This document shows positions 8,571 through 56,982 of a stretch of 64,000 nucleotides of DNA, piece after piece. Position 1 is the stretch's first letter. Each line of letters starts with the position of its first letter. The notes beneath the pieces were generated by a model that was not told the origin of the DNA, ran no database searches, and was given only the letters and a program-made list of their open reading frames with translations. Source of the DNA: Halothiobacillaceae bacterium UBA5861 (lineage in GTDB: Bacteria > Pseudomonadota > Gammaproteobacteria > UBA5861); the NCBI GenBank assembly GCA_002432635.1, contig DJFX01000047.1:320766-384765 (forward strand). The letters are read 5' to 3'. The position numbers were made by a program, and so were the translations under genes.

Positions 8571-9259
8571 AACCCGCCCTAAAAGCCATTCTCTTTGACC
8601 TTGATGGCACCTTGGTCGATAGTGTGCCAGACCTTGCCTGGGCAATTGACCAAATGCGGGACCACTTTCAACTCCCTCCTTGTGGTGAAAATCAGGTTCG
8701 CAACTGGGTAGGAAACGGCGTTGATCAGTTGGTGCGGCGGGCGCTGACAAATGGCAATGATACAGCGCCAGTCGACCCCATGCTCTACAGCAAAGCACTC
8801 ACATCTTTCAAACACCATTACGGCTGTGAACCTTCCCGCTACAGCCGTACCTACCCGCATGTTGAAGATACCTTGAATCACTTTGCTCGTCGCAATATCA
8901 AGCTCGCCGTTGTCACCAACAAAGCCACACGTTTCACAGAACAATTGTTGGCGGACAAAAAGCTGGATTCCTGGTTATCTGCAACGGTTTGCGGCGACAC
9001 TTTGGCCGTCAAAAAACCTGCACCACAACCACTCTCCCACGCATTGAAGTTGATGAACGTGGCGCCGGATGAAGCCGTGATGGTGGGCGACTCCAAAAAT
9101 GACGTCGGCGCTGCCCGAGCGTTAAAGTTACCGGTTATTTGTAAAACAGGGGGGTATAACCACGGTGAGGATATCGCCCTCAGCCAACCTGACGCGATTT
9201 TTGATGACTTCTCAGAATTGCCGGACTGTATCGATCAAGTTTGGCATGCCGGACAATAG
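8567..9259 (+). CDS. gph: phosphoglycolate phosphatase (HAD superfamily)
   Basis: HAD motif [11 protein letters not shown] at N-terminus; ATGA overlap with rpe stop; classic rpe-gph pairing. Confidence 0.8.
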
Positions 9260-10047
9260 TAGCTTGCCCGCTGGGCAATCACCTTTCGTTTGATGGGACG
9301 ATGGCATTGCTGACAAGGCGCACCGTCCCGCCCATAAACCTGCAGTGATTGCACGAAGTACCCGGGGTTTCCCTCTGCATTGAGAAAGTCCCGTAACGTT
9401 GTTCCGCCTTCCTGAATCGCTTTTTTGAGCACACGTTTAATAGCACCCACAAGCTGCTCAGACTCCGCTTTCGTGAGCCTCCCTGCCGCTCTTCCTGGAC
9501 GAATACTCGCCATAAAGAGTGCTTCATTGGCATAAATATTCCCAACGCCAACAACGACATGGCTGTTCATAATAAATGACTTAATCGGTATACGGCGGTT
9601 CCGAGTCACTCGGTAGAGATACTCTGCATTAAACTTTGAACTCAAAGGCTCAGGCCCCAGTTCAGCAAGCAAGGGATGTTCATATGGCTCTTCTGCCGTC
9701 CACAGGATTGCACCAAACCTCCGTGGGTCATGGAATCTGAGCGATGTGCCCGTCTCAAAACAGCAGATAAAGTGATCATGTTTTCGATAAGGTTCTTCTT
9801 TAGCACAGACCCGCAAACTCCCAGACATCCCCAAGTGCATCATGACGGTACCCTGAGTCATTTCCAGTAAAAGGTATTTGCCCCGGCGATTGACGGCGGC
9901 AATATGATCCCCCACTATTGATCGAATAGACTCCGGCACTGGCCATCGCAACTGGGCATTTCGCACCATCACCTCGGTCACGCCTTGGTTTAATATATGC
10001 GGCTCAATACCTCGCCGCGTTGTTTCAACTTCAGGTAATTCTGGCAT
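9235..10047 (-). CDS. mutM: formamidopyrimidine-DNA glycosylase
   Basis: N-terminal MPELPEVE (catalytic Pro2) and C-terminal zinc finger CPACQ; start placed at internal Met giving Pro2 rather than the upstream ORF-track Met. Confidence 0.9.
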   Translation of the reverse strand: MPELPEVETTRRGIEPHILNQGVTEVMVRNAQLRWPVPESIRSIVGDHIAAVNRRGKYLLLEMTQGTVMMHLGMSGSLRVCAKEEPYRKHDHFICCFETGTSLRFHDPRRFGAILWTAEEPYEHPLLAELGPEPLSSKFNAEYLYRVTRNRRIPIKSFIMNSHVVVGVGNIYANEALFMASIRPGRAAGRLTKAESEQLVGAIKRVLKKAIQEGGTTLRDFLNAEGNPGYFVQSLQVYGRDGAPCQQCHRPIKRKVIAQRASYYCPACQT

Positions 10048-10049
10048 AG

Positions 10050-12176
10050 TTACAAACGTCGTCTTTTCCACCAAATGATCAACCCGGCCAACACCAGACT
10101 AACCGGCAAAAGGACGAGAAATAAACCACCGAGCACGGCAATTTGAGCGGAGGTCAACGCCACACGGCTATCAGCAGGTGACTGGCTCGCTATCTTCAGC
10201 AAGCCGTCATCACCAACGAGCCAGTCAAACAGGCGCTGGGCAAGGCTCAAATTACCGCCATTGCCAAGATAGGCGTTTGAGAGAAAATCACCATCGCCTA
10301 ACACAGCAATTCGTTGCTCTCGCTCGGCATACCGTCGGGTCAGCGTAGCCCCCAGTGTAATCGGCCCTGCACGCTCCTCCGTATCGGCATCAAAACGGAT
10401 TTCACCCATCAGCTGCTTGGTCTGCGGATGAATGGCGGCATTCACTTCGGTCCAACTGCCTTGGCTTGTTTGTAGAAAAGGTGTTGTTTGCCAGTTTTCA
10501 TGGGGCTGAATGACTAAACCCGCCGCCTGGGGGAAAAGTGTCACCAGACGTAAATCCGTGGTTAACGGGTGCGCGGGATACTGAGAAACCAATGCAAAGT
10601 CCGGGGAGTCAACGCCGTAGAGACTGGCCGATTGATCAATCACGACGCCGGGCAACACTTTCACACCCAGCTCAGCCGCCAGCGCCTCAACATGAAGCGG
10701 ACGCCCCGGCTCAACAAACCACAAAAGATTGCCACCGCGGCGGATGAAATCCAGCACCACCGCCATTTCTCCCGGAAAGTAGTCATACCGAGGGCTCGCA
10801 AGGATCACAACGTCCACATCCTCCGCAATCTGCGGTGAAGTCACCAGGCTTTGCGCACTGATCTCAAACCCGTTCTGTGTCAGGCGCTGACTTAATCGGC
10901 TCATGTCGAAGTTAGCCGACCCCTGAGGATCTCTCTCGCCGTGCCCCGTCATGAAAACCAGCTTACGCCGCTGATCACGGTACAGCCGGTACAGCGCTTG
11001 GCTGATACTGGCTTCGCTAATCTGCTGGAGTCTTTCCTCGCGATTGCCATAACGAATGGCCATAGTGCCACTGTTCTGGATATCCAGCTGCTCGGCCAGC
11101 GCCGGTGACTGGCCGAGATCGACAAAAGACAAGACCATGTCGGATTTGACACGCTGATAACGTGCAACTAGCGATTCAATCGCTTGCCGGGGCGCTGTTT
11201 GGCCTGTGGTATAAACCGTCACAGAGATAGGTTCTTGCAGCGTTTTTAACAGCGTTTCACTCGCTTCGGACAAGGTGTTACGTTGTGTGGCCGTTAAATC
11301 AATTTGCCAATGATCGCGAGAAAATAAAAAATATCCCATAACAGCCGCAAGGCAGATCACAAAAACAAAGCGTAGCGGGCGGAAAAAACACCAGCTTTTG
11401 ATGAACCCGGTGTAAGCACTCGGCACCTGCTGATAGCCTTTCATGGTCGCGGTTTGCATGACCGATAACAATAAAAAGAAGGCTATGAACCATGCGTAAT
11501 AGCCAAGATCTCCGGTATGTAAAAGTCCAGAATAGAAGCTTTCCAAGTGCTTGTGGGGGGCCAGCCAATAGAATATGGCACTGTCATCACGCGTCGTATT
11601 CCCCGATAACCACAGAAACAGTAAAAAGCAGTAAAGCGCAAACGCGGCAATAACGGGCTGGCGCGTCAAGGTAGAAAAAAAGAAACCCGCCGCACACACC
11701 CCCACAATCATCAAAAAAGCGCCCAGTGTGGCCAGCAAAACGGCACCGGTATCGATGGGAGTAATCACGGTCATCCCCAATAACATCAGCGCATTTAAGC
11801 CGAGAGGAATCAGAAAAAAAACCCATAAACCCAACAACTTACCGAAAACAATTTCAATGCTGTTTAGTGGGGCGGTCAGTAGTAACACCCAGGTGTTCTG
11901 GCGCCTTTCTTCCGAAACCAAGCGCATGCTTAACAGAGGAATAATCAGCAAATAAATGACAGAAACAGGCGCATAAAAACGTGCAATCAAAAACTGCGTA
12001 AGTCCTGGGGGCTGACTCATATTCACAAGCTGGGGTTGCAGCAAGAGGTAACGCTCGACTCCGGCCAGGAGGAGATAGGCGGATAACAGCTGCATACCCG
12101 ATAATATCACCCAGGCCACAGGTGATAAAAACAGACTGCGTAACTCGCGCCGGCTTATCGCCAAAAGGCCACTCAT
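10050..12176 (-). CDS. ABC-2 type permease fused to GldG-like auxiliary domain (ABC-type uncharacterized transport system)
   Basis: 708 aa; N-terminal six TM ABC-2 permease, large C-terminal GldG-like periplasmic domain with terminal TM anchor; stop is 2 nt from the mutM start. Confidence 0.65.
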   Translation of the reverse strand: MSGLLAISRRELRSLFLSPVAWVILSGMQLLSAYLLLAGVERYLLLQPQLVNMSQPPGLTQFLIARFYAPVSVIYLLIIPLLSMRLVSEERRQNTWVLLLTAPLNSIEIVFGKLLGLWVFFLIPLGLNALMLLGMTVITPIDTGAVLLATLGAFLMIVGVCAAGFFFSTLTRQPVIAAFALYCFLLFLWLSGNTTRDDSAIFYWLAPHKHLESFYSGLLHTGDLGYYAWFIAFFLLLSVMQTATMKGYQQVPSAYTGFIKSWCFFRPLRFVFVICLAAVMGYFLFSRDHWQIDLTATQRNTLSEASETLLKTLQEPISVTVYTTGQTAPRQAIESLVARYQRVKSDMVLSFVDLGQSPALAEQLDIQNSGTMAIRYGNREERLQQISEASISQALYRLYRDQRRKLVFMTGHGERDPQGSANFDMSRLSQRLTQNGFEISAQSLVTSPQIAEDVDVVILASPRYDYFPGEMAVVLDFIRRGGNLLWFVEPGRPLHVEALAAELGVKVLPGVVIDQSASLYGVDSPDFALVSQYPAHPLTTDLRLVTLFPQAAGLVIQPHENWQTTPFLQTSQGSWTEVNAAIHPQTKQLMGEIRFDADTEERAGPITLGATLTRRYAEREQRIAVLGDGDFLSNAYLGNGGNLSLAQRLFDWLVGDDGLLKIASQSPADSRVALTSAQIAVLGGLFLVLLPVSLVLAGLIIWWKRRRL

Positions 12177-13132
12177 GCGGACTCACTTTCCTGATGGACA
12201 GCAGGGTTGTCTTGGGAGATTACCGATAAAAACGTTTTTTCCAGCGTTTGCGCCGGCGGATAAATGGCTCCCAGGCCCCACTGATTTTCGTATGCGCATC
12301 GTGCGATTTTATCCACAGAAATTTCGGAGGAACGAAATTTTAATAGCCAGCCATCCGTATGCATGTGTACACTTTTTAACTCGGGTATAGCGCGCATCAA
12401 ATCACTTGAAGTCACTGTTTTTTTCAGTTGTACAATCAGCTGACTCATACCTCGGTGCGTCCCCTGATTCCCTATTGGCTCGTCATACACCAGTCGGCCT
12501 TTGGCCAAAATGGCAACGCGCGAGCAAGCTGCCTGGACATCGGCCAGCAAGTGCGTTGACAGAATAACCGAGCGATGCTCTCCCAGTGAGCTGATCAGCT
12601 CCCGCATCGAATGAGCCTGCTCAGGATCCAGCCCGGAGCTCGGCTCATCGAGAATGATCAGCTTGGGCTGGTGCACAATGGCCTGTGCTATCCCAAGGCG
12701 TTGCTGGAAGCCTTTGGACAGATTGCGCGATAAACGCCTTCCCTCAGAAGACAAGCCACACAGGTGTTTAGCATCTTTAACTGCAACCGAGCACCTGTTT
12801 GAAGGAACACCGCGTAAACGGGCGCAATACCACAGGTACTCATCAACCGTTAACTCAGGGTACAAGGGCAATTGCTCAGGCAGATAACCCAACAGGCGCT
12901 GAACCACTTTCGGCCGCTGGTAAGGGTTTTGCCCCATCATTTTCAACACACCTGATGTTGGACTAATCACTCCACTGAGAATACCAAGCGTGGTGGACTT
13001 GCCTGCACCATTGACACCCAATAAACCGAGTACTTCCCCTGCTTGAAGCTGCAAACTCAGCGCACTTAAAACAACCTGACCTGCGTAGGTTTTACAAATT
13101 CCATGAGCTTCTATGACGGGTGCTGATGACAT
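12173..13132 (-). CDS. ABC transporter ATP-binding protein (partner of the ABC-2/GldG permease)
   Basis: Walker A GVNGAGKST, signature LSKGFQQR, Walker B ILDEPSSGLD; start chosen at internal ATG (MSSAPVIEAHGI). Confidence 0.8.
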   Translation of the reverse strand: MSSAPVIEAHGICKTYAGQVVLSALSLQLQAGEVLGLLGVNGAGKSTTLGILSGVISPTSGVLKMMGQNPYQRPKVVQRLLGYLPEQLPLYPELTVDEYLWYCARLRGVPSNRCSVAVKDAKHLCGLSSEGRRLSRNLSKGFQQRLGIAQAIVHQPKLIILDEPSSGLDPEQAHSMRELISSLGEHRSVILSTHLLADVQAACSRVAILAKGRLVYDEPIGNQGTHRGMSQLIVQLKKTVTSSDLMRAIPELKSVHMHTDGWLLKFRSSEISVDKIARCAYENQWGLGAIYPPAQTLEKTFLSVISQDNPAVHQESESA

Positions 13133-13322
13133 AGGTTTCCAATCGTCCTTAACGGGAGGTCTGACGATACGCCTGACCACTTAATCTTTAAATCAAAACC
13201 ACTATTGACCGGCTCAAAGTATATGCGATTTCTGAGCATTTATAGATGGACCGGTTGTGTGGCGCATTAAGAAAATGAGAGATTGGCCGCTAGTGCGGGT
13301 ATCAGGTGTTGAAGGTATAGCT

Positions 13323-14108
13323 ATGGATTTATCTCAAATGCGCGTCCTGCTGGTTGAAGCTTCACTGACCCAACAACGCATCATCAAGGCTCGCTTGATG
13401 GAACTGGGGGTTCAGTATGTGACCTATGCGCAATCAGGGCAAGAGGCCTTACTGGCGATACGGCAAGGCTCACCCGATCTTGTTATCAGCAATATGTATT
13501 TGTCAGATATGACGGGCACCGAGCTGCTGCATGAGATCCGCCTTGACACTGAAACACAAGCAACGCCTTTTATTTTAATCTCTGGTGAACGCAACTGGCA
13601 CCTGCTTGATGGCATAAGACAAGCCGGATGTGTTGCCATTCTGCCAAAGCCTTTTGAGCTCAACGAGTTAAAATATGCGCTGACGGCCACCGCCAATTTT
13701 CATCATAAGCAGTCCCTCTCGTTATCAAGCTATTGTGTCGATGATTTAAATGTACTGGTTGTTGATGACAGCAAAATGGCTCGTAATCATATGATGCGCG
13801 TTCTACGCAGTATGGGCGTCGACAGATTGACTGAAGCCGCTAATGGCGTGGAAGCCACACAATACTTGTCCGAACACTATTTCGATCTTGTGGTGACTGA
13901 TTACAATATGCCGGAAATGGATGGGGAAAAGCTCACGGCTTACATTCGTGAAAATAGTGCCCAACAAACCATTCCTATCATTATGGTCACCAGTGAGGAA
14001 AGCGAAAGCCGGCTCAGTGCTGTTATGCAGTCCGGTGTATCAGCGATCTGTGACAAACCGTTTGACCCCAACACCGTTCGTGCACTGCTTGAAGAGGTGC
14101 TCTCATAA
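13323..14108 (+). CDS. tandem receiver protein: degenerate N-terminal REC (phospho-acceptor Asp replaced by Asn) + CheY-like C-terminal REC, no output domain
   Basis: REC1 LVISNMYLSDMTG lacks the conserved Asp and the N-terminal DD pair; REC2 VVDDS...VVTDYNMPEMDG...DKPF is canonical CheY-like. Confidence 0.8.
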   Translation: MDLSQMRVLLVEASLTQQRIIKARLMELGVQYVTYAQSGQEALLAIRQGSPDLVISNMYLSDMTGTELLHEIRLDTETQATPFILISGERNWHLLDGIRQAGCVAILPKPFELNELKYALTATANFHHKQSLSLSSYCVDDLNVLVVDDSKMARNHMMRVLRSMGVDRLTEAANGVEATQYLSEHYFDLVVTDYNMPEMDGEKLTAYIRENSAQQTIPIIMVTSEESESRLSAVMQSGVSAICDKPFDPNTVRALLEEVLS

Positions 14109-14145
14109 CCATGAACCCTCTTTGCATTCTCCATGGAACCGTAAA

Positions 14146-14940
14146 ATGTCTACCAGCGATATAGCCAGCTTATCAATCTTATTAGTTGAGCCTTCAGTCA
14201 CACAACGGCGCATCATAAAAGAGCAGATTATGGCAATGGGCGCGGTTGAGATCCATGATGCCGAAACCGGGGATGAGGCTCTGGACGTATTGCGCTCGGT
14301 ACAGCCGAACCTCGTGATCAGTGCGATGTACCTGCCCGATATGCTGGGCACTGACTTACTTGCCCGCATTAATGCTGAATCCTCTTTTGACAATACTGCG
14401 TTCATTCTGATTTCGAGTGAAACATCCATCAAAGCCCTTGAGCCCATCAAACAGGGGGGGGCCATCAGTATTCTGCCGAAACCATTTACAATTGAAGCAT
14501 TATCTTATGCCCTGCAAGCCTCCGTTGATTATTTCGTTCCAACACCTGTCGACTCCGACACGTTTGATACCCAGGAACTGGAACTGTTAGTTGTTGATGA
14601 CAGCACCATGTCACGCAAGCAAATTAAGCGTATTTTAACGAACATGGGCATTACCAATATTCACGAAGCCGAGGATGGACAGCAGGCGATCGAGATGATC
14701 AAAAGAAACTTTTATGACCTGGTTGTTACCGACTACAACATGCCGAATATTGACGGCCAGGCACTGGTTGACTTTATCCGTAACAAAAGTAATCAGTCGT
14801 CACTACCCGTACTCATGATTACCAGTGAAAAAGACCAAGGACGACTCAAAGCCGTACAACAAGCAGGCGTCTCGGCACTGTGCGATAAGCCCTTTGGGCC
14901 ACAGAGCATACGAGCGATGATCGAAAGCATTTATGCCTGA
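14146..14940 (+). CDS. paralogous tandem receiver protein: degenerate REC (Asp replaced by Ala) + CheY-like REC
   Basis: REC1 LVISAMYLPDM; REC2 VVDDS...VVTDYNMPNIDG...DKPF; start set at internal ATG (MSTSDIASL) matching the paralog's architecture. Confidence 0.8.
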   Translation: MSTSDIASLSILLVEPSVTQRRIIKEQIMAMGAVEIHDAETGDEALDVLRSVQPNLVISAMYLPDMLGTDLLARINAESSFDNTAFILISSETSIKALEPIKQGGAISILPKPFTIEALSYALQASVDYFVPTPVDSDTFDTQELELLVVDDSTMSRKQIKRILTNMGITNIHEAEDGQQAIEMIKRNFYDLVVTDYNMPNIDGQALVDFIRNKSNQSSLPVLMITSEKDQGRLKAVQQAGVSALCDKPFGPQSIRAMIESIYA

Positions 14941-15110
14941 TAATATTCGCCTCTTATTCGAGAGCATCTAAACCGGGCCTCTCCCTACTAACTTTCCCTA
15001 CACCCTGCCACAGAAAATACGTCTTTTCTAACCGGTCACAGAATCAGGCAACCACAATAGGGGATAATTAAAATTGGATAGCCCGTCTAATAACCGTAAA
15101 ATAACGTCCA

Positions 15111-16277
15111 ATGAAAAGAAAAATCACGCTCCTGGCATTGTTATCGTCAACACTGCTGAATGCATGGATTGCATCAGCCCGTGGGGAAGACGAAGTAGAC
15201 TATAACTTAGCGTCACGCTTCTATGCCGGTGCGGGGCTGGGTATCGCACGCCTGGCACCAGATGTTTCCGGCGCATCCACCAAAGACGAAACAGGGATAG
15301 GGTATTCCCTGCATTTTGGTTACGATATCAGTGAACGCTTTTCTATCGAAGGCGCTATTGCGGATTTAGGGGATGTTACCCTCGAAAGCGACAGTACCCA
15401 GCAAGACATCGGCAGCCTCGACTACTTTCAGTATGGGATCAGTGGTCTTGGCTACTTTTATAACAGCCATGGCTTTAGCGGTAGCTCCTCTGAAGAGTCC
15501 CCCTACCAATTGCGTTCAGGAATCTCGTTGTACGGCAGACTCGGTTTGAGTGCCATGGATATCAGCTCGTCCTCATCGAACCTCAATATTGATGGCAGTC
15601 CCGACATCAAATTGTTTGGCAGTGGCGGCTTGGAGTACGGATGGTCCAGTGGTTATACGGCACGAGCGGAACTCACATCGTTTTCGACTGACGTACAAAT
15701 GCTATCACTTGGCTTCAGTAAACGCTTTGGTGGTGCCCGATCTTCTATCTCTCAAACACCACACAATACAGAACAAAAAGCACCGCCACCTACCGCAAAA
15801 AAGCCTGAGCCTAAAGCATCCGTTTCAACACCTGCCTTATCCACTGACCTGGATGGCGACGGCATCAACAACAACATTGACCGCTGCCCGGATACCCCGG
15901 CAACAGCCACAATGGTTAACAGCTACGGCTGCCACCTGGATCTGGCAAAACTACCCGCTATCAAGTTCCAAACAGGCTCTGCGGAGTTGACCCAAAAATC
16001 ACAGGCACTGCTCGCCTGGTTAGCACGCCGCTTGCAAGATTTTCCCACCACCAAACTGGATGTTCATGCGCATACCGATGGCCAAGGGGATACTGATGCC
16101 AATCAACGCTTATCTGAACGCCGCGCAGAAGCCGTTGTTAACTACCTGATTGCAAAAGGAGTCTCTGCAAAGCGACTCACAGCGGTTGGTTTTGGTGAGT
16201 CCCAACCCATTGCTGACAACAGCACATCAGAAGGACGGCAACGCAATCGGCGAGTTGAATTTCACGTTGCTGAATAG
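15111..16277 (+). CDS. OmpA/OprF-like outer membrane protein (N-terminal beta-barrel, Pro-rich linker, TSP3-like Ca-binding repeat, C-terminal OmpA peptidoglycan-binding domain)
   Basis: Signal peptide; DLDGDGINNNIDRCPDTP repeat; OmpA_C motifs TDGQGDTDANQRLSERRA and RRVEF. Confidence 0.8.
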   Translation: MKRKITLLALLSSTLLNAWIASARGEDEVDYNLASRFYAGAGLGIARLAPDVSGASTKDETGIGYSLHFGYDISERFSIEGAIADLGDVTLESDSTQQDIGSLDYFQYGISGLGYFYNSHGFSGSSSEESPYQLRSGISLYGRLGLSAMDISSSSSNLNIDGSPDIKLFGSGGLEYGWSSGYTARAELTSFSTDVQMLSLGFSKRFGGARSSISQTPHNTEQKAPPPTAKKPEPKASVSTPALSTDLDGDGINNNIDRCPDTPATATMVNSYGCHLDLAKLPAIKFQTGSAELTQKSQALLAWLARRLQDFPTTKLDVHAHTDGQGDTDANQRLSERRAEAVVNYLIAKGVSAKRLTAVGFGESQPIADNSTSEGRQRNRRVEFHVAE

Positions 16278-16287
16278 CCGCTGAGCC

Positions 16288-16327
16288 GCTCAATCGGTTA
16301 TGCTAGTAACCGTGTAACCGATTGAGC
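16288..16327. promoter_or_regulatory. 13 bp perfect inverted repeat (gctcaatcggtta / taaccgattgagc, 14 nt loop) between the ompA-like gene and the aminotransferase, ending 5 nt before its ATG
   Basis: Read directly from the sequence; no T-tract, and the 3' arm covers the presumptive ribosome-binding region. Confidence 0.4.
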
Positions 16328-16332
16328 TGACC

Positions 16333-17475
16333 ATGCACATACCGTCCAAACTACCTGATGTTGGTACAACGATCTTCACCGTCATGTCTGCGCTGGCCAA
16401 TGAACACAGCGCGATCAACTTATCACAAGGTTTTCCAGACTTTAGTTGCCCGGAAGAGCTTATCGAAAGCGTCCACCGCTTCATGCGCGAGGGGTATAAC
16501 CAGTATCCGCCAATGAGCGGGATACCACAACTTCGTCAAGCCATTGCTGATAAGTACGCCTCTCTTTACCAAACCGCTTTGGATGCAGACACAGAAGTAA
16601 CGGTCACCTCCGGCGCGACAGAAGCTCTGTTTTGCGCGATTACCGCATTAGTCAATCCCGGTGATGAGGTAATCATTTTTGATCCAGCCTATGATGCCTA
16701 TGAGCCTGTCATCCAACTGTCAGGTGGCATCACACGGCGCATCAAACTCAGCTATCCGGACTATGCCATTGACTGGGACCAGGTCAAGGCATGTATCAAT
16801 GCTAAAACCCGCCTCATAATTCTCAATAATCCCCACAACCCCACGGGTTCCATTTTGACCTCGCATGATATTCAAAACCTTCAGGCGCTGGTCTCGAATA
16901 CACCTGTTTTTTTACTCGCGGATGAAGTTTATGAGCACATCGTATTCGATGGAGCTCAACACCAAAGCCTTTTACGTTTCGAGGATTTACGCACCCGGTC
17001 TTTTGTCGTTTCTTCTTTTGGGAAGACTTACCACATGACGGGCTGGAAAATAGGCTACTGTATTGCCCCTCCCGAAATGAGCACCGAATTTCGAAAAATC
17101 CACCAGTTCAACACATTCACAACCTGTACGCCAATGCAGTACGCCCTGGCTGAATTCCTGCAATACTCGGAATATTATCGATCGCTTGGCGAGTTTTATC
17201 AGAATAAACGCAACCACTTCCTGGACAGTATGAAACCATCTCGTTTTAAGGCGTTGCCCTGCCACGGCACATATTTTCAATTAATGTCCTATGCAGACAT
17301 CACCGACCAGCAGGACATCGAATTCGCACGCAAATTGACGACGGAATCAGGTATCGCCTCAATCCCCGTGTCCGTATTTTATGGTGACGGCTGTGATGAA
17401 AAGGTACTACGGTTTTGCTTCGCAAAAGACACCAAAACGCTGAATAAAGCTGCAGAAATCCTATGCAAGATTTAA
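16333..17475 (+). CDS. ybdL: PLP-dependent aminotransferase, YbdL-like methionine/glutamine aminotransferase
   Basis: N-terminus SKLPDVGTTIFTVMSALANEHSAINLSQGFPDF closely matches E. coli YbdL; fold-type I aminotransferase length. Confidence 0.75.
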   Translation: MHIPSKLPDVGTTIFTVMSALANEHSAINLSQGFPDFSCPEELIESVHRFMREGYNQYPPMSGIPQLRQAIADKYASLYQTALDADTEVTVTSGATEALFCAITALVNPGDEVIIFDPAYDAYEPVIQLSGGITRRIKLSYPDYAIDWDQVKACINAKTRLIILNNPHNPTGSILTSHDIQNLQALVSNTPVFLLADEVYEHIVFDGAQHQSLLRFEDLRTRSFVVSSFGKTYHMTGWKIGYCIAPPEMSTEFRKIHQFNTFTTCTPMQYALAEFLQYSEYYRSLGEFYQNKRNHFLDSMKPSRFKALPCHGTYFQLMSYADITDQQDIEFARKLTTESGIASIPVSVFYGDGCDEKVLRFCFAKDTKTLNKAAEILCKI

Positions 17476-54507: not shown

Positions 54508-56982
54508 TTAATAAATTATTTTCTTCTTTTTTAATTGTTCAATCGTTGATTGTTCCAAGCCAAGAATCTTGTCATAAACATAATCATCGTGCTCCCCTAG
54601 CAGAGGGGCCGCACTATAGATATCCAATGGAATCTTGCTCATTTGCCAGGGTATTCGGTACAGGTCTATCTCACCAAGCAAGGAATGTTTAGCCGTTTGG
54701 CGGAGCTTGCGACTGGCAAAGTGCGGGTGCTTGAATTGCTCTTCGATGGACAGTAACGGGGTTGCAGGTACACCTTCATCGCTCAACCTCTCTGCAATGT
54801 CATCCCGGTTTTGCTCGGCTGTCCATGCGTTTAAAGAATGCTCAATGCGGACTTCGTGTGCACGCCGGTCCTCCAACGTGTCAATATCATGCCACTCAAC
54901 CGGCTCCCCCATTATTTTTTTCAGTTGCCTCCATTGCTGATCGCTTTCCACGCTGATTGCAACCCACTGGTCTCGTCCGGCACATTGAAAATGACCGTGA
55001 GGTGTGAATAGCGGATGTGGGTTGATGGTTTTTTGAGTGCGCTTTGGATTATCTCCATTCCATTGAGTATCAATCATTGCCTCGGCAATGGCAGAAGCAC
55101 CGACTTCAAGCTGGGAGAAATCAATGTATTGTCCCTGCTGACTTTTCCGCCGGTGATACAATGCCGCCAGGATTGCATAAAGTGCGTGAATCCCTGCACT
55201 CATATCATTCAGCCCAAAATTGAGCATGCCAACAGGCGCTTCCCCCGGATACGCGAGCAAGGACTCAAGCCCCGAATACCCTGATAACACCGGTGCATAA
55301 CCTTTCAAGTCAGCGATGGGGCCGGACTGCCCAGCGCTTGATAGTGAAATCATCACCAGATCGGGACGTACTGTCTTTAATGAAGTGTAATCCAGCCCCA
55401 GTTTTGCAAGCGTACCCGGCGTGAAGTTTTCCAGCACAACATCGCTCTTGGCAACCAGGTTACGCAGCAGCTCTGCACCTTCTTCTGTTTTGATGTTAAG
55501 GCGAATGCTGAGTTTGTGGCGATTGACTTCATGGTAGAAAGGACCAAGTTCAATTGATTTTCCAGGTATTCGAAACAGCTCACCATCAAAGGTAGGGGCT
55601 CCTCTCAATCGGGCATTATCAAGCCGTTTCGTATGTTCAACTTTGATGACTTCCGCACCCAGGTCTGCGAGAAAGCCGGCCGCAAATGGGCCAGCCCAAA
55701 CCCATCCCAAGTCCAGTACGCGAAGCCCTTCGAGGGGGCGTTTGATGCTTTGCCTATGCGGAGTTTCCATGTTTGCTCGTTGGGTGAACTCTGAGCGGAT
55801 ACTGACGTTATGCTCCCCAAGTCGAGGGGGTGGTTTTAATGGCGGAACCGAACCACCGCTAAATTGAAATGGCATTTTGGGGATCTTCACTGGACCTCGC
55901 TCTACCATATCAAGTGTTCTAAAAAACTGGCGATGGGCAAATTGTGCTTCTTCAAGCGCTTGCCCAACGGTATTGACTGGCGCCATTGGAAAGCCCCACT
56001 GCCGAGCGAGTTTAAATAATTCCTGTTGTGTATAACGGGCAATCAATGGGCTGATTAATGCGTCAACTTCAGCGGAATAGTCCCGCCCCATCGCCACTTG
56101 GTCACGGTAGCGAGGGTTGTCCGCCCAATCCGGATTACCCATCGCCTTTAAAAACTGATCCCAGTCACGGGTAGACCTCGCAATCATCACAACCATGCCA
56201 TCTTTGCACGGGTAAAGCCCAAGTGGATAAGGCCCCATCGTGCCAAATGCCTGGTGCCCAGCTCGTTGCCACTGCAGGCCGTAGTAAATCATCAAGCTCG
56301 ACTGGATACCGGCATAGTTGGCCAAAATATCAGCCACTGATATGTCAATGAACTGGCCGCAACCGGTATCATCCCGCTGGATAAGTGCTGCCATTACAGC
56401 GGCGGCGGCATGCACGCCTCCTTGTGTATCCGCAAGAGTCAGTGGTAATTGCAGTGGTGCTTTATCGGGTGAACCAATGGCCCATGATGTCGATGACAGT
56501 GCGCTGGCATGTATTGCTGAGCCCAATCGGCCAGCGTAAAGTCCGGCCCAACCAAAATTACTGATTGCACAATAAATCAGGTGTGGATGCGTTTGTTTCA
56601 GGCTGTCGTAATCAAGACCGGCTTGCATCAACGCACTTTTATCCAACGCAGTTAAAAAAATATCACTGGATTTTAGGCGCTCAGCAAGCCACAGTTGGTC
56701 GCTTCTATCATCAAAATTAATGGTGATGGACTCTTTTCCGGTATCAAGAAAAGTGTGCAAAGCACTTTGTTCAATCTCTGGCTTGTCCTTTGGAAAGGGG
56801 CCATAGTGGCGGGCCAGCTTGCCATTAAAGGGTTCAAGCGAGATGACCCGGGCACCCATTTCAACAAGCAAGTGCGAGGCGTAGGGGGCTGAAGCAAGCC
56901 CACCCACTTCAATAACCGTGATTTCAGATAAGGTTTTATAGATATTTTTCATAGCATTAGAAATCAAAATCCCAAAAACCAT
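54508..56982 (-). CDS. tandem-fused family III CoA-transferase (two complete CaiB/BaiF/Frc-like domains in one 824 aa chain)
   Basis: Two repeats each beginning with a Rossmann-like L(x)VIEVGG / LRVLDLGW motif and each retaining a catalytic-Asp loop (ADTQGG; NDMSAG). Confidence 0.8.
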   Translation of the reverse strand: MVFGILISNAMKNIYKTLSEITVIEVGGLASAPYASHLLVEMGARVISLEPFNGKLARHYGPFPKDKPEIEQSALHTFLDTGKESITINFDDRSDQLWLAERLKSSDIFLTALDKSALMQAGLDYDSLKQTHPHLIYCAISNFGWAGLYAGRLGSAIHASALSSTSWAIGSPDKAPLQLPLTLADTQGGVHAAAAVMAALIQRDDTGCGQFIDISVADILANYAGIQSSLMIYYGLQWQRAGHQAFGTMGPYPLGLYPCKDGMVVMIARSTRDWDQFLKAMGNPDWADNPRYRDQVAMGRDYSAEVDALISPLIARYTQQELFKLARQWGFPMAPVNTVGQALEEAQFAHRQFFRTLDMVERGPVKIPKMPFQFSGGSVPPLKPPPRLGEHNVSIRSEFTQRANMETPHRQSIKRPLEGLRVLDLGWVWAGPFAAGFLADLGAEVIKVEHTKRLDNARLRGAPTFDGELFRIPGKSIELGPFYHEVNRHKLSIRLNIKTEEGAELLRNLVAKSDVVLENFTPGTLAKLGLDYTSLKTVRPDLVMISLSSAGQSGPIADLKGYAPVLSGYSGLESLLAYPGEAPVGMLNFGLNDMSAGIHALYAILAALYHRRKSQQGQYIDFSQLEVGASAIAEAMIDTQWNGDNPKRTQKTINPHPLFTPHGHFQCAGRDQWVAISVESDQQWRQLKKIMGEPVEWHDIDTLEDRRAHEVRIEHSLNAWTAEQNRDDIAERLSDEGVPATPLLSIEEQFKHPHFASRKLRQTAKHSLLGEIDLYRIPWQMSKIPLDIYSAAPLLGEHDDYVYDKILGLEQSTIEQLKKKKIIY

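Follow-up and report, generated by a model that had tools for sequence, protein, structure and literature searches.

Tandem orphan response regulators that join a conserved pseudo-receiver to a CheY-like receiver

Dual receivers without an output domain occur in FrzZ of Myxococcus xanthus, in which FrzE phosphorylates both receivers, each having the acceptor Asp, and which controls motility through protein-protein interaction. A tandem-receiver orphan response regulator, DrdR (XC_3845), was described in 2026 from Xanthomonas campestris pv. campestris (PMC13507683, PMC13535131). DrdR binds PilB and PilT, whose ATPase activity it raises; the catalytic residues of its second receiver (REC2) and one Asp of its first (REC1) are essential, neither domain alone complements, and the protein was read as having REC2 as its input and REC1 as its output (PMC13507683). 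It also binds FleQ and represses it (PMC13535131). In Caulobacter PleD, as presented in passages of a pseudo-receiver review (PMC12632262), the active domain, once phosphorylated, changes its packing against the pseudo-receiver. The same passages place pseudo-receivers at several percent of all receiver domains and describe their working in bacteria as largely unexplained. The architecture described below is not mentioned in the passages searched of that review and of an ALR survey (PMC4395418), and a Halomonas literature match for "two receiver domains" was set aside as not relevant, being an Hpt-REC-REC-GGDEF protein.

Two adjacent genes, A and B, were located on the same strand but in different reading frames of a 64-kb window, the whole stretch of DNA analyzed here (Table 1). 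Their products are 44% identical over the full length with zero gaps, in agreement with the tandem paralogy proposed in the first-pass annotation. The lengths given there (262 and 265 aa) had counted the stop codon and are corrected in Table 1, whereas the description of two receiver domains and nothing else was accurate. Pfam returned two PF00072 stretches in each protein (whole-protein match of 1.6e-42 and 144.6 bits for A, and of 1.5e-41 and 141.5 bits for B; cut-off, 30.2 bits) and, showing only PF00072, no output domain in either. The N-termini of family members support the listed ATG as the probable start of gene A rather than an upstream GTG at 13257. Among the collected relatives, gene A has an exact match (P0001) and a 97% orthologue on contig L005, and gene B has orthologues of 92% on L005 and 59% on L085 and L086.

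Table 1. Features of the tandem receiver genes, with coordinates in the window
Feature	Coordinates	Strand	Positions of note	Basis
Gene A, 261-aa output-less response regulator, REC1-linker-REC2	13323..14108	+	ATG start 13323; TAA stop 14106-14108	ORF, sequence, two PF00072 stretches
Gene A REC1, pseudo-receiver, about aa 5-122	13335..13688	+	E12, A13, S14, N57 (acceptor position, codon 13491-13493), D62, S87, K109	CheY alignment, family columns, AF2
Gene A inter-domain linker, about aa 123-141	13689..13745	+		AF2 pLDDT, column entropy
Gene A REC2, canonical receiver, about aa 142-259	13746..14099	+	D148, D149, D193 (codon 13899-13901), T223, K245; Ile at K-3 switch position	PF00072, NCBIfam, CheY alignment, family columns
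A-B spacer, 37 nt	14109..14145	+		Sequence
Gene B, 264-aa paralogue of A with the same architecture	14146..14940	+	ATG start 14146; TGA stop 14938-14940	ORF, sequence, PF00072
Gene B REC1, pseudo-receiver, about aa 8-125	14167..14520	+	E15, P16, S17, A60 (acceptor position, codon 14323-14325), P64-D65, S90, K112	CheY alignment, family columns
Gene B REC2, canonical receiver, about aa 145-262	14578..14931	+	D151, D152, D196 (codon 14731-14733), T226, K248	PF00072, NCBIfam, CheY alignment

CheY is the nearest protein in sequence to both domains (29 to 37% identity). When REC1 was aligned with E. coli CheY, the D57 column was occupied by Asn in A (N57) and by Ala in B (A60); D12 is replaced by Glu, D13 by Ala in A and by Pro in B, and T87 by Ser, and K109 is retained. 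Because the acceptor position lacks Asp and Pro or Ala stands in place of the metal-binding Asp, REC1, as judged from its residues, cannot be a canonical phospho-acceptor. It is a pseudo-receiver/ALR on two grounds, since it matches the receiver HMM without an acceptor Asp and since metal-binding D13 is gone. The loss of the acceptor Asp reported in the first-pass annotation was thus borne out, and none of 122 aligned family sequences offers an alternative Asp at that position (Ala in 60, Ser in 35, Thr in 22, Asn in 5, and Asp in 0). The accompanying claim that the N-terminal acidic pair is lost proved half right: the second Asp has gone, but the first position is still acidic (Glu).

In REC2 of both proteins, the catalytic quintet DD/D/T/K is complete (DD, D193/D196, T223/T226, and K245/K248 in A/B), and the acceptor lies in the motif DYNMP(E/N)(M/I)DG, which resembles CheY in its D(W/Y)NMPxMDG loop. 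The best PDB sequence matches of gene A REC2 were likewise CheY (E of about 3e-19). All four domains of A and B carry Ile at the column of CheY Y106 (K-3). With no aromatic side chain at this switch position, REC2 may lack the customary Y-T coupling. Against the NCBIfam CheY equivalog NF007901, A scored 133.4 and B 144.2 bits, summed over two domains and below the 189-bit cut-off. The designation of REC2 as a textbook domain therefore holds for its catalytic residues and fails for the K-3 position and the equivalog score. The proteins differ from CheY further in having two domains, in the non-phosphorylatable REC1, and in their location outside a che cluster.

The pair is genuine yet unexceptional, as both proteins belong to a large conserved family. 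A homologue search gave 4570 matches at E<=1e-10, and the family was confirmed by genome matches in no fewer than 566 species-representative genomes from the Gamma- and Betaproteobacteria; 49 stand-alone clusters were counted in the best 150 of the 50%-identity representatives. Family members are common in cultured Pseudoalteromonas and Marinomonas, and in a search seeded from Pseudoalteromonas the named matches were Pseudoalteromonas, Marinomonas, and Natronospirillum only, plus a few generic labels. The gene is nearly always a single-copy orphan. Across 122 relatives, REC1 bears the degenerate signature E-P-S ... S-[A/S/T/N] ... L-P-D-M ... S ... K-P-F, with E12, S87, and K109 in 100% and P13 in 117 of the 122; in REC2 of the same set, DD, D, and K are present in 100%, and the T223 position is Thr in 113 and Ser in 9. 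Since this signature is kept across the relatives, the degeneracy of REC1 is, on the evidence of the alignment, a conserved family trait rather than local decay, and the rarity that the earlier description implied for this design gains no support. REC1 positions conserved at 90% or more map to the beta1-alpha1, beta3-alpha3, beta4-alpha4, and beta5-alpha5 loops; the would-be active-site loops are the best-conserved part of the domain.

The tandem arrangement is a lineage-specific duplication. The pair, together with its upstream synteny, is also present on three related metagenomic contigs (L005, L085, and L086), and the A and B clades emerge side by side in an NJ tree; a second, independent duplication of the family gene was found on L020. 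Comparison with L005 gave dN/dS values of 0.059 for gene A (REC1, 0.038; REC2, 0.067) and 0.117 for gene B (REC1, 0.094; REC2, 0.142), and purifying selection acts on each domain of each gene and is strong for both copies. Gene B REC1 carries the family-consensus signature, and gene A REC1 departs from it at P13->A, P61->S, and S88->G. That the locus is an artefact, either one frameshifted gene or a pair of decaying pseudogenes, is suggested by nothing other than adjacency and the degenerate REC1, and we give this reading practically no credence: each ORF is a complete, family-length, two-domain frame with its own start and stop and typical termini, the pair is conserved on the three contigs, dN/dS lies at 0.06 to 0.12, and the REC1 substitutions are shared family-wide. 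Recent horizontal acquisition was also considered and found no support, as GC and GC3 agree with those of the window and the upstream synteny is kept in relatives.

An AF2 model of protein A contained five strands and five helices per half (mean pLDDT, 84), with REC1 predicted as a complete (beta-alpha)5 fold at a pLDDT of about 90. The linker is predicted to be disordered, with pLDDT below 50 at residues 129-134; it is variable in sequence, and its column entropy is the highest of the family alignment. The pTM was 0.50 with no confident inter-domain geometry, and the model therefore lends no structural support to a switch from REC2 to REC1. In Foldseek comparisons, single CheY chains superposed over some 120 model residues with an rmsd of 1.1 to 1.3 A. 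The best two-domain matches were PleD (1w25/2v0n) and the REC-REC fragment 3luf/3mf4 (E of 5e-15 to 5e-12), on which superposition of the two domains was poor (rmsd, 11 to 12 A). No solved full-length relative was found in the PDB, where the matches were CheY-type single domains and the two-domain PleD and 3luf.

Among characterized proteins, DrdR appears to be the closest analogue of A and B, a likeness drawn from architecture and published description. Both types measure about 260 to 280 aa and consist of two receivers without an output domain, with a pseudo-receiver at the N-terminus and the full catalytic set at the C-terminus, and in both cases the gene is an orphan with no kinase gene nearby (for A and B, in the 64-kb window). 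They differ in the spacing of REC2, which is 50/33/22 in DrdR (D148/D198/T231/K253) and 44/30/22 here (D149-D193-T223-K245), and a D-to-T spacing of 30 residues was found in 155 of the 159 motif-matched receivers among 270 collected proteins. The DrdR fingerprint S66/D71/D148/D198/T231/K253 was absent from these 270, and a search by relative spacing was also blank. [quoted passage not shown] PleD likewise pairs an active with a degenerate receiver fold in tandem; however, its active receiver comes first and its pseudo-receiver second, followed by a GGDEF output, whereas A and B have the reverse order and no GGDEF. The PleD-type pair shares about 20% sequence identity with A and B, and its pseudo-receiver bears another signature. 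FrzZ differs in being encoded in a chemosensory operon and from A and B in that REC1 of the latter is without the acceptor Asp.

Upstream of the pair lie a divergent ABC ATPase gene and an ABC-2/GldG-type permease gene, and downstream lies a gene for an OmpA-family protein; no further REC, histidine kinase, or PilB-like ORF and no pil gene was found within the window. The flanking genes and the orphan status noted in the first-pass annotation were thus confirmed. A consensus scan for promoters and terminators over positions 12900 to 16500 gave nothing above shuffle expectation and nothing in the A-B spacer, and Rfam and tRNA scans of the window gave zero matches. As the 37-nt spacer holds no promoter- or terminator-like site, A and B are likely cotranscribed. 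In relatives, neighboring genes were clustered for 75 loci, and Pfam was run on 127 immediate neighbors. No neighbor was universally conserved across 73 loci. A REC-HD-GYP gene is directly downstream of the family gene in five sister-clade loci, and pilB is directly downstream in four Methylococcales-type loci (L014, L015, L063, and L070) and, in L010, 3 kb away on the downstream side; histidine kinases lie near the gene in 5 to 6 loci and HDOD genes in 4, and most loci have no nearby histidine kinase. Because adjacency to pilB and adjacency to HD-GYP each belong to a single clade of the NJ tree, each represents one or two evolutionary events; both are absent from the window. The histidine kinase and HDOD neighbors are likewise restricted to clades. 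Adjacency to OmpA was discarded as a functional link, as it occurs only in the window and in L005, with OmpA on the opposite side of the gene in L001.

We favor, with moderate confidence, the reading that A and B are orphan, output-less regulators whose REC2 receives its phosphate from an unlinked kinase and whose REC1 serves as the partner-binding output. REC2 is taken as the input because the complete phospho-acceptor site sits there. A kinase or Hpt protein encoded elsewhere would phosphorylate D193 of A and D196 of B, phosphorylation would alter the packing of REC2 against REC1 or the dimerization of the protein, and the remodeled pocket face of REC1 would then bind and modulate partner proteins. 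By analogy with DrdR, candidate partners are ATPases that serve machines of motility or secretion (PilB, PilT, FleQ); the gene neighborhoods of relatives would alternatively suggest c-di-GMP enzymes. The duplication would date to the ancestor that this organism shares with the L085/L086 lineage, and it may have let A and B specialize for different inputs or targets or work as a heteromer. The first-pass proposal that REC1 is a docking module controlling a CheY-like output is plausible, but the wiring with REC2 as input and REC1 as output fits at least as well.

Several CheY-type single-domain receivers work as phosphate sinks in multi-CheY systems, and receivers of this type are the nearest to REC2. 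An account along these lines, in which REC2 drains or relays phosphoryl groups of a kinase or Hpt protein shared with another regulator, REC1 docks on the kinase, and the two copies tune two pathways, is consistent with the missing output domain and with the histidine kinases or hybrid kinases with Hpt that adjoin the gene in some relatives. We nevertheless consider it unlikely, as a kinase is nearby in few loci and a che cluster in none, mere docking hardly accounts for how strictly the pseudo-active-site loops of REC1 are conserved, and direct effector binding, not sink behavior, was demonstrated for DrdR (PMC13507683). Still less can be said for an ordinary chemotaxis CheY that binds the flagellar switch, which we regard as very improbable. 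JGI labels many relatives "chemotaxis response regulator CheY," and CheY is the top PDB and NCBIfam match of both domains, yet the equivalog scores fall short of the cut-off (133/144 against 189 bits), the protein has two domains, and Ile stands in place of the Y106 switch residue. Moreover, che and flagellar families were absent from the 25 commonest in the immediate neighbors of 73 loci, and no che or flagellar genes were found among the annotated genes of the window.

The conserved pocket face of REC1 could instead bind a small molecule such as c-di-GMP, so that the protein would combine second-messenger and phosphorylation signals. In relatives, genes linked to c-di-GMP are enriched among the neighbors (REC-HD-GYP, HDOD, and a PilB that has an MshEN domain), and a pseudo-receiver that binds c-di-GMP is described for Caulobacter ShkA (PMC7010744). 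This neighborhood signal is, however, limited to clades and absent from the window, and no known c-di-GMP-binding motif was identified, so that we hold the proposal to be rather improbable. An equally small chance is assigned to Ser/Thr phosphorylation, with REC1 as the target of a Hanks-type kinase or the cassette as the regulator of one. In many clusters, Pkinase domains carry the same cassette, signature included, as a C-terminal fusion, and these fusions form a large family whose named members are Gemmataceae; of the 122 stand-alone proteins, 57 have Ser or Thr at position 57, and the T87 position of REC1 is an invariant Ser. Position 57 is nevertheless most often Ala, and it is Asn in A and Ala in B, which excludes a conserved phospho-site there; no Ser/Thr kinase was found among the 127 immediate neighbors scanned or in the annotated part of the window, and a fusion in Planctomycetota need not mirror function in Proteobacteria. 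A broader reading, possible but doubtful, would treat the pseudo-receiver and the CheY-like receiver as an ancient discrete cassette in which the remodeled dead site of REC1 is a conserved pocket that binds a specific partner peptide or ligand, and which couples His-Asp phosphotransfer to other enzyme classes, with the duplicates of this lineage acting as a two-channel or heteromeric switch. If so, it would span the Gemmataceae form fused to Hanks-type Ser/Thr kinases, and the stand-alone form of Proteobacteria may govern ATPases or c-di-GMP enzymes. The cassette signature of this reading is E-P-S / S-x-x-Y-L-P-D-M / S-S-E / L-P-K-P-F.

The family offers a clean and widespread case of a conserved pseudo-receiver tethered to a working receiver, with no further domain to confuse the readout. 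Should REC1 be the output of REC2, it would be a simple model for phosphorylation read by a dead paralogue, and the tandem pair would be a natural experiment in the diversification of such a switch. For the organism the meaning is modest, namely, two orphan response regulators possibly tied to the control of pili, motility, or c-di-GMP. One further feature of REC1 merits attention: an invariant Asp stands five residues past the acceptor position (D62 in A and D65 in B), with D62 unchanged throughout the 30-sequence alignment A2. In DrdR, S66 and the essential D71, also five residues on, parallel family positions 57 and D62, in a mapping inferred from the published numbering.

Two adjacent same-strand genes, each encoding two receiver domains, had been proposed in the first-pass annotation, and both were confirmed as separate ORFs (genes A and B) with two PF00072 stretches apiece, designated REC1 and REC2; Pfam found no other domain in either product. 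A 37-nt spacer lies between the genes, which occupy different frames (within 13323-14940), and their proteins share 44% identity, gapless over the entire length. Database entry P0001, an exact match to A, is 283 aa long, indicating that its gene caller took an upstream GTG at 13257 as the start. Based on N-termini within the family and on a Shine-Dalgarno-like GAAGG located 7 nt upstream of the ATG, we favor the 261-aa start over this extension (window 13257-13322). Both genes are complete, with termini matching those usual in relatives, and the suggestion that they might be a single frameshifted gene was not upheld. GC and GC3 are in line with the window. Compared to orthologues at L005, the closest related locus (A, 97%; B, 92%), dN/dS was 0.059 (A) and 0.117 (B), with the lowest value in REC1 of A (0.038). 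An AlphaFold2 model of A, generated with 30 sequences (mean pLDDT, 84), contained two full (beta-alpha)5 domains with a disordered linker between them (residues 128-142); the relative placement of the domains was of low confidence (pTM, 0.50).

All four receiver domains were aligned against E. coli CheY. In REC1, the phospho-acceptor D57 is replaced by Asn57 in A and Ala60 in B, bearing out the reported loss of this Asp; T87 is replaced by Ser, and K109 is retained. The reported loss of the N-terminal acidic pair holds for D13 (Ala in A, Pro in B) but not for D12, where an acidic Glu remains in both proteins. REC2, described earlier as textbook CheY-like, does have 5/5 catalytic residues and a CheY-like loop, DYNMP(E/N)(M/I)DG, but the aromatic switch residue of CheY is Ile, and NCBIfam CheY equivalog scores (A, 133; B, 144 bits; two domains summed) fall below the 189-bit cut-off. 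On the strength of this alignment, the original observation is correct with these two refinements: REC1 qualifies as a pseudo-receiver, or aspartate-less receiver, and REC2, as judged from sequence, is CheY-like yet not a CheY.

A search of 5.8 billion proteins yielded 4570 matches at E<=1e-10, the best 120 of which were ~255-305 aa in length with 50-63% identity. Scanning one genome per species gave at least 566 confirmed genome matches. Among the matches listed were Gammaproteobacteria (Cycloclasticus, Methylophaga, Methylomonas, Methylotuvimicrobium, Marinomonas, Pseudoalteromonas, Moritella, Sedimenticola, and Thiodiazotropha) and Betaproteobacteria (Nitrotoga and Sulfuricella), the closest listed genome being "Gammaproteobacteria bacterium MAG.318" (L005). 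In cultured Pseudoalteromonas and Marinomonas, the proteins are named only "response regulator," "response regulator transcription factor," or "CheY." The two-domain architecture of A/B is very common and, evidently, functional. Across 122 aligned sequences, REC1 has a fixed signature (gene A numbering: E12, 122/122; P13, 117/122; S87 and K109, 100% each), and its acceptor position is occupied by Ala (60), Ser (35), Thr (22), or Asn (5) and never by Asp (0/122), so an alternative acceptor at this site was not found in relatives. D62 is invariant in a 30-sequence alignment. In REC2, the DD, D, and K residues are present in 122/122 sequences, and position 223 is T/S; by these residues, the domain is equipped for phosphorylation. 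Although REC1 lacks a canonical acceptor, it is well folded, and its sequence is both conserved and under constraint, chiefly on the pseudo-active-site face. Its conservation peaks at the four would-be active-site loops (EPS, PDLxxSxxLxD, LxSSE, and ILPKPF), which points to a pocket that is probably remodeled but functional.

No neighbor gene common to every locus was found among 73 other loci. Signaling families recurring among 127 immediate neighbors were receiver (9), HATPase_c and HisKA (6 and 5), and HD-GYP (5), followed by HDOD (4) and PilB-type ATPases with MshEN (4). REC-HD-GYP proteins, which are generally c-di-GMP phosphodiesterases, are encoded at five loci from the clade nearest A/B, at the position of paralogue B in the window. 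The five loci with pilB, which encodes a type IV pilus ATPase, belong to one clade, and two of the pilB-adjacent ones are labeled Methylomarinum and Methylomonas. Because each adjacency is restricted to a single clade, we regard both as suggestive, rather than strong, functional hints. At the Lamellibrachia endosymbiont locus L003, a 652-aa protein encoded two genes 3' of the family gene has a receiver domain as its sole recorded Pfam match and a large unannotated N-terminal part; 5 kb beyond it, a hybrid kinase containing Hpt is encoded.

Features of the window and of related loci and proteins
Feature	Position	Strand	Description
Gene A	ATG 13323 to TAA 14108	+	261 aa; ORF and sequence
Gene B	ATG 14146 to TGA 14940	+	264 aa; ORF and sequence
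ABC ATPase	5' of A/B	divergent	window annotation
ABC-2 permease + GldG-type auxiliary domain (ABC_transp_aux, DUF7088)	10050-12176	-	708-aa ORF, fused
fpg	9235-10074	-	listed TTG start
CoA-transferase family III ORF	54508-56982	-	824 aa
REC-HD-GYP	L003:11097-12170, L012:3480-4538, L013:11022-12080, L016:10922-11977, L035:11196-12254		directly 3' of single family gene
pilB (T2SSE + MshEN)	L014:4478-6187, L015:10911-12620, L063:10881-12590, L070:10851-12560		directly 3' of family gene
pilB	L010:4336-6048		3 kb from family gene; Cycloclasticus symbiont locus
652-aa receiver protein	L003:12402-14360		
Tandem copies, Chromatiales MAG	L020:9228-10816		
Kinase-fused proteins P0150, P0166, P0171, P0178, P0180, P0191, P0198, P0200, and relatives			620-670 aa; cassette C-terminal to kinase

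The sole characterized protein of this architecture found in literature searches is DrdR of Xanthomonas, an orphan of 280 aa in which an N-terminal pseudo-receiver precedes the catalytic receiver (PMC13507683). DrdR binds PilB and PilT, raising the ATPase activity of both, and its function requires both domains, a single Asp of REC1 (D71), and the catalytic residues of REC2 (PMC13507683); FleQ is a further binding partner, which DrdR represses (PMC13535131). By its published description, DrdR resembles A/B in architecture and orphan status, and the pilB adjacency in relatives echoes the DrdR-PilB interaction. Ser66 and Asp71 fit family position 57 and the invariant D62, a mapping inferred from published domain boundaries. 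The numbering of the DrdR REC2 residues (148/198/231/253) implies indels when set against the canonical 44/30/22 spacing of A/B. A/B represent one lineage-duplicated case of an architecture for which a first characterized analogue appeared in print in 2026.

In an exhaustive HMMER search covering 1.84 billion cluster representatives, 2171 proteins were recovered at E<=1e-30. The full two-domain cassette was present in 91 of the best 150, 49 of them stand-alone and ~33 N-terminally extended, and the extensions were Hanks-type Ser/Thr kinase domains in 8/10 proteins scanned. Fused cassettes share the signature E-P-S ... S-[A/S/T] ... P-D ... S/T-K followed by DD-D-T-K in REC2. The kinase-cassette family has >6000 relatives at E<=1e-30, with named members in Gemmataceae (Planctomycetota). 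Such fusions are a possible "Rosetta stone" link between the cassette and Ser/Thr kinases.

A/B have neither an output domain (Pfam) nor a linked kinase (64-kb window). We propose that REC2 would be phosphorylated by an unlinked kinase or Hpt protein, altering REC2-REC1 packing or oligomerization, and that REC1, as an effector surface, would then bind target proteins; A and B may have separate inputs or targets or may act jointly. DrdR is one precedent for this model; a second is PleD, in which an active receiver, once phosphorylated, can repack onto a pseudo-receiver (PMC12632262). A broader reading, in which a discrete signaling cassette, its pseudo-active site conserved as a binding pocket, is reused with different enzyme classes, is on balance doubtful.

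That A/B serve as a phosphate sink or relay, with docking as the role of REC1, is unlikely. Less probable still is a pseudo-receiver that binds a ligand such as c-di-GMP, as in ShkA, and a link to Ser/Thr phosphorylation, to which the kinase fusions relate, is given equally little weight. A/B fail the defining features of the CheY, PleD-like, and FrzZ-like groups, and a true flagellar CheY is very improbable in view of the Ile switch residue and the subthreshold equivalog scores. That the pair represents an artefact or decaying genes was excluded by the complete ORFs and low dN/dS, leaving artefact a virtually negligible probability.

The tandem pair is lineage-specific. Among ~80 loci, two copies were seen only in the window, at L005, and, as an independent event, at L020; in the more distant relatives L085 and L086, the pair is kept (A-orthologue, 62-63%; B-orthologue, 59%), as is upstream synteny comprising EF-G, rpe, a HAD hydrolase, fpg, and an ABC transporter. 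A neighbor-joining tree placed the A and B clades side by side inside the Sedimenticola/Thiodiazotropha/Chromatiales section of the family. Nucleotide identity between A and B is near nil; therefore, the duplication is old. REC1 of A departs from the family consensus (P13 to A, P61 to S, and S88 to G), and REC1 of B keeps it. The L020 copies abut, with a stop/start overlap at 10022, and fall in separate regions of the tree.

Window annotation agreed with the flanks named earlier, an ABC-2/GldG transporter and an OmpA-family protein, the latter 3' of A/B and followed by housekeeping genes; the OmpA adjacency was not recurrent among loci of relatives. When every ORF of the window was screened by phmmer against a histidine kinase, PilB, and the two REC domains, only A and B were recovered, in keeping with the prior statement that a cognate kinase is absent from the window. 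Ten more large ORFs examined were housekeeping, as are the annotated genes (DegP-like protease, GGT, EF-G-family protein, LptD-SurA, AceK, and citrate/sulfate-type transporters). Neither tRNA genes (tRNA scan) nor Rfam families at gathering threshold were detected in window 1-64000. The 3' end of the ABC-2/GldG ORF overlaps the start of fpg by 25 nt, an arrangement syntenic in L085 and L086. The 824-aa ORF contains two CoA-transferase family III stretches and is apparently a tandem-fused double CoA-transferase.
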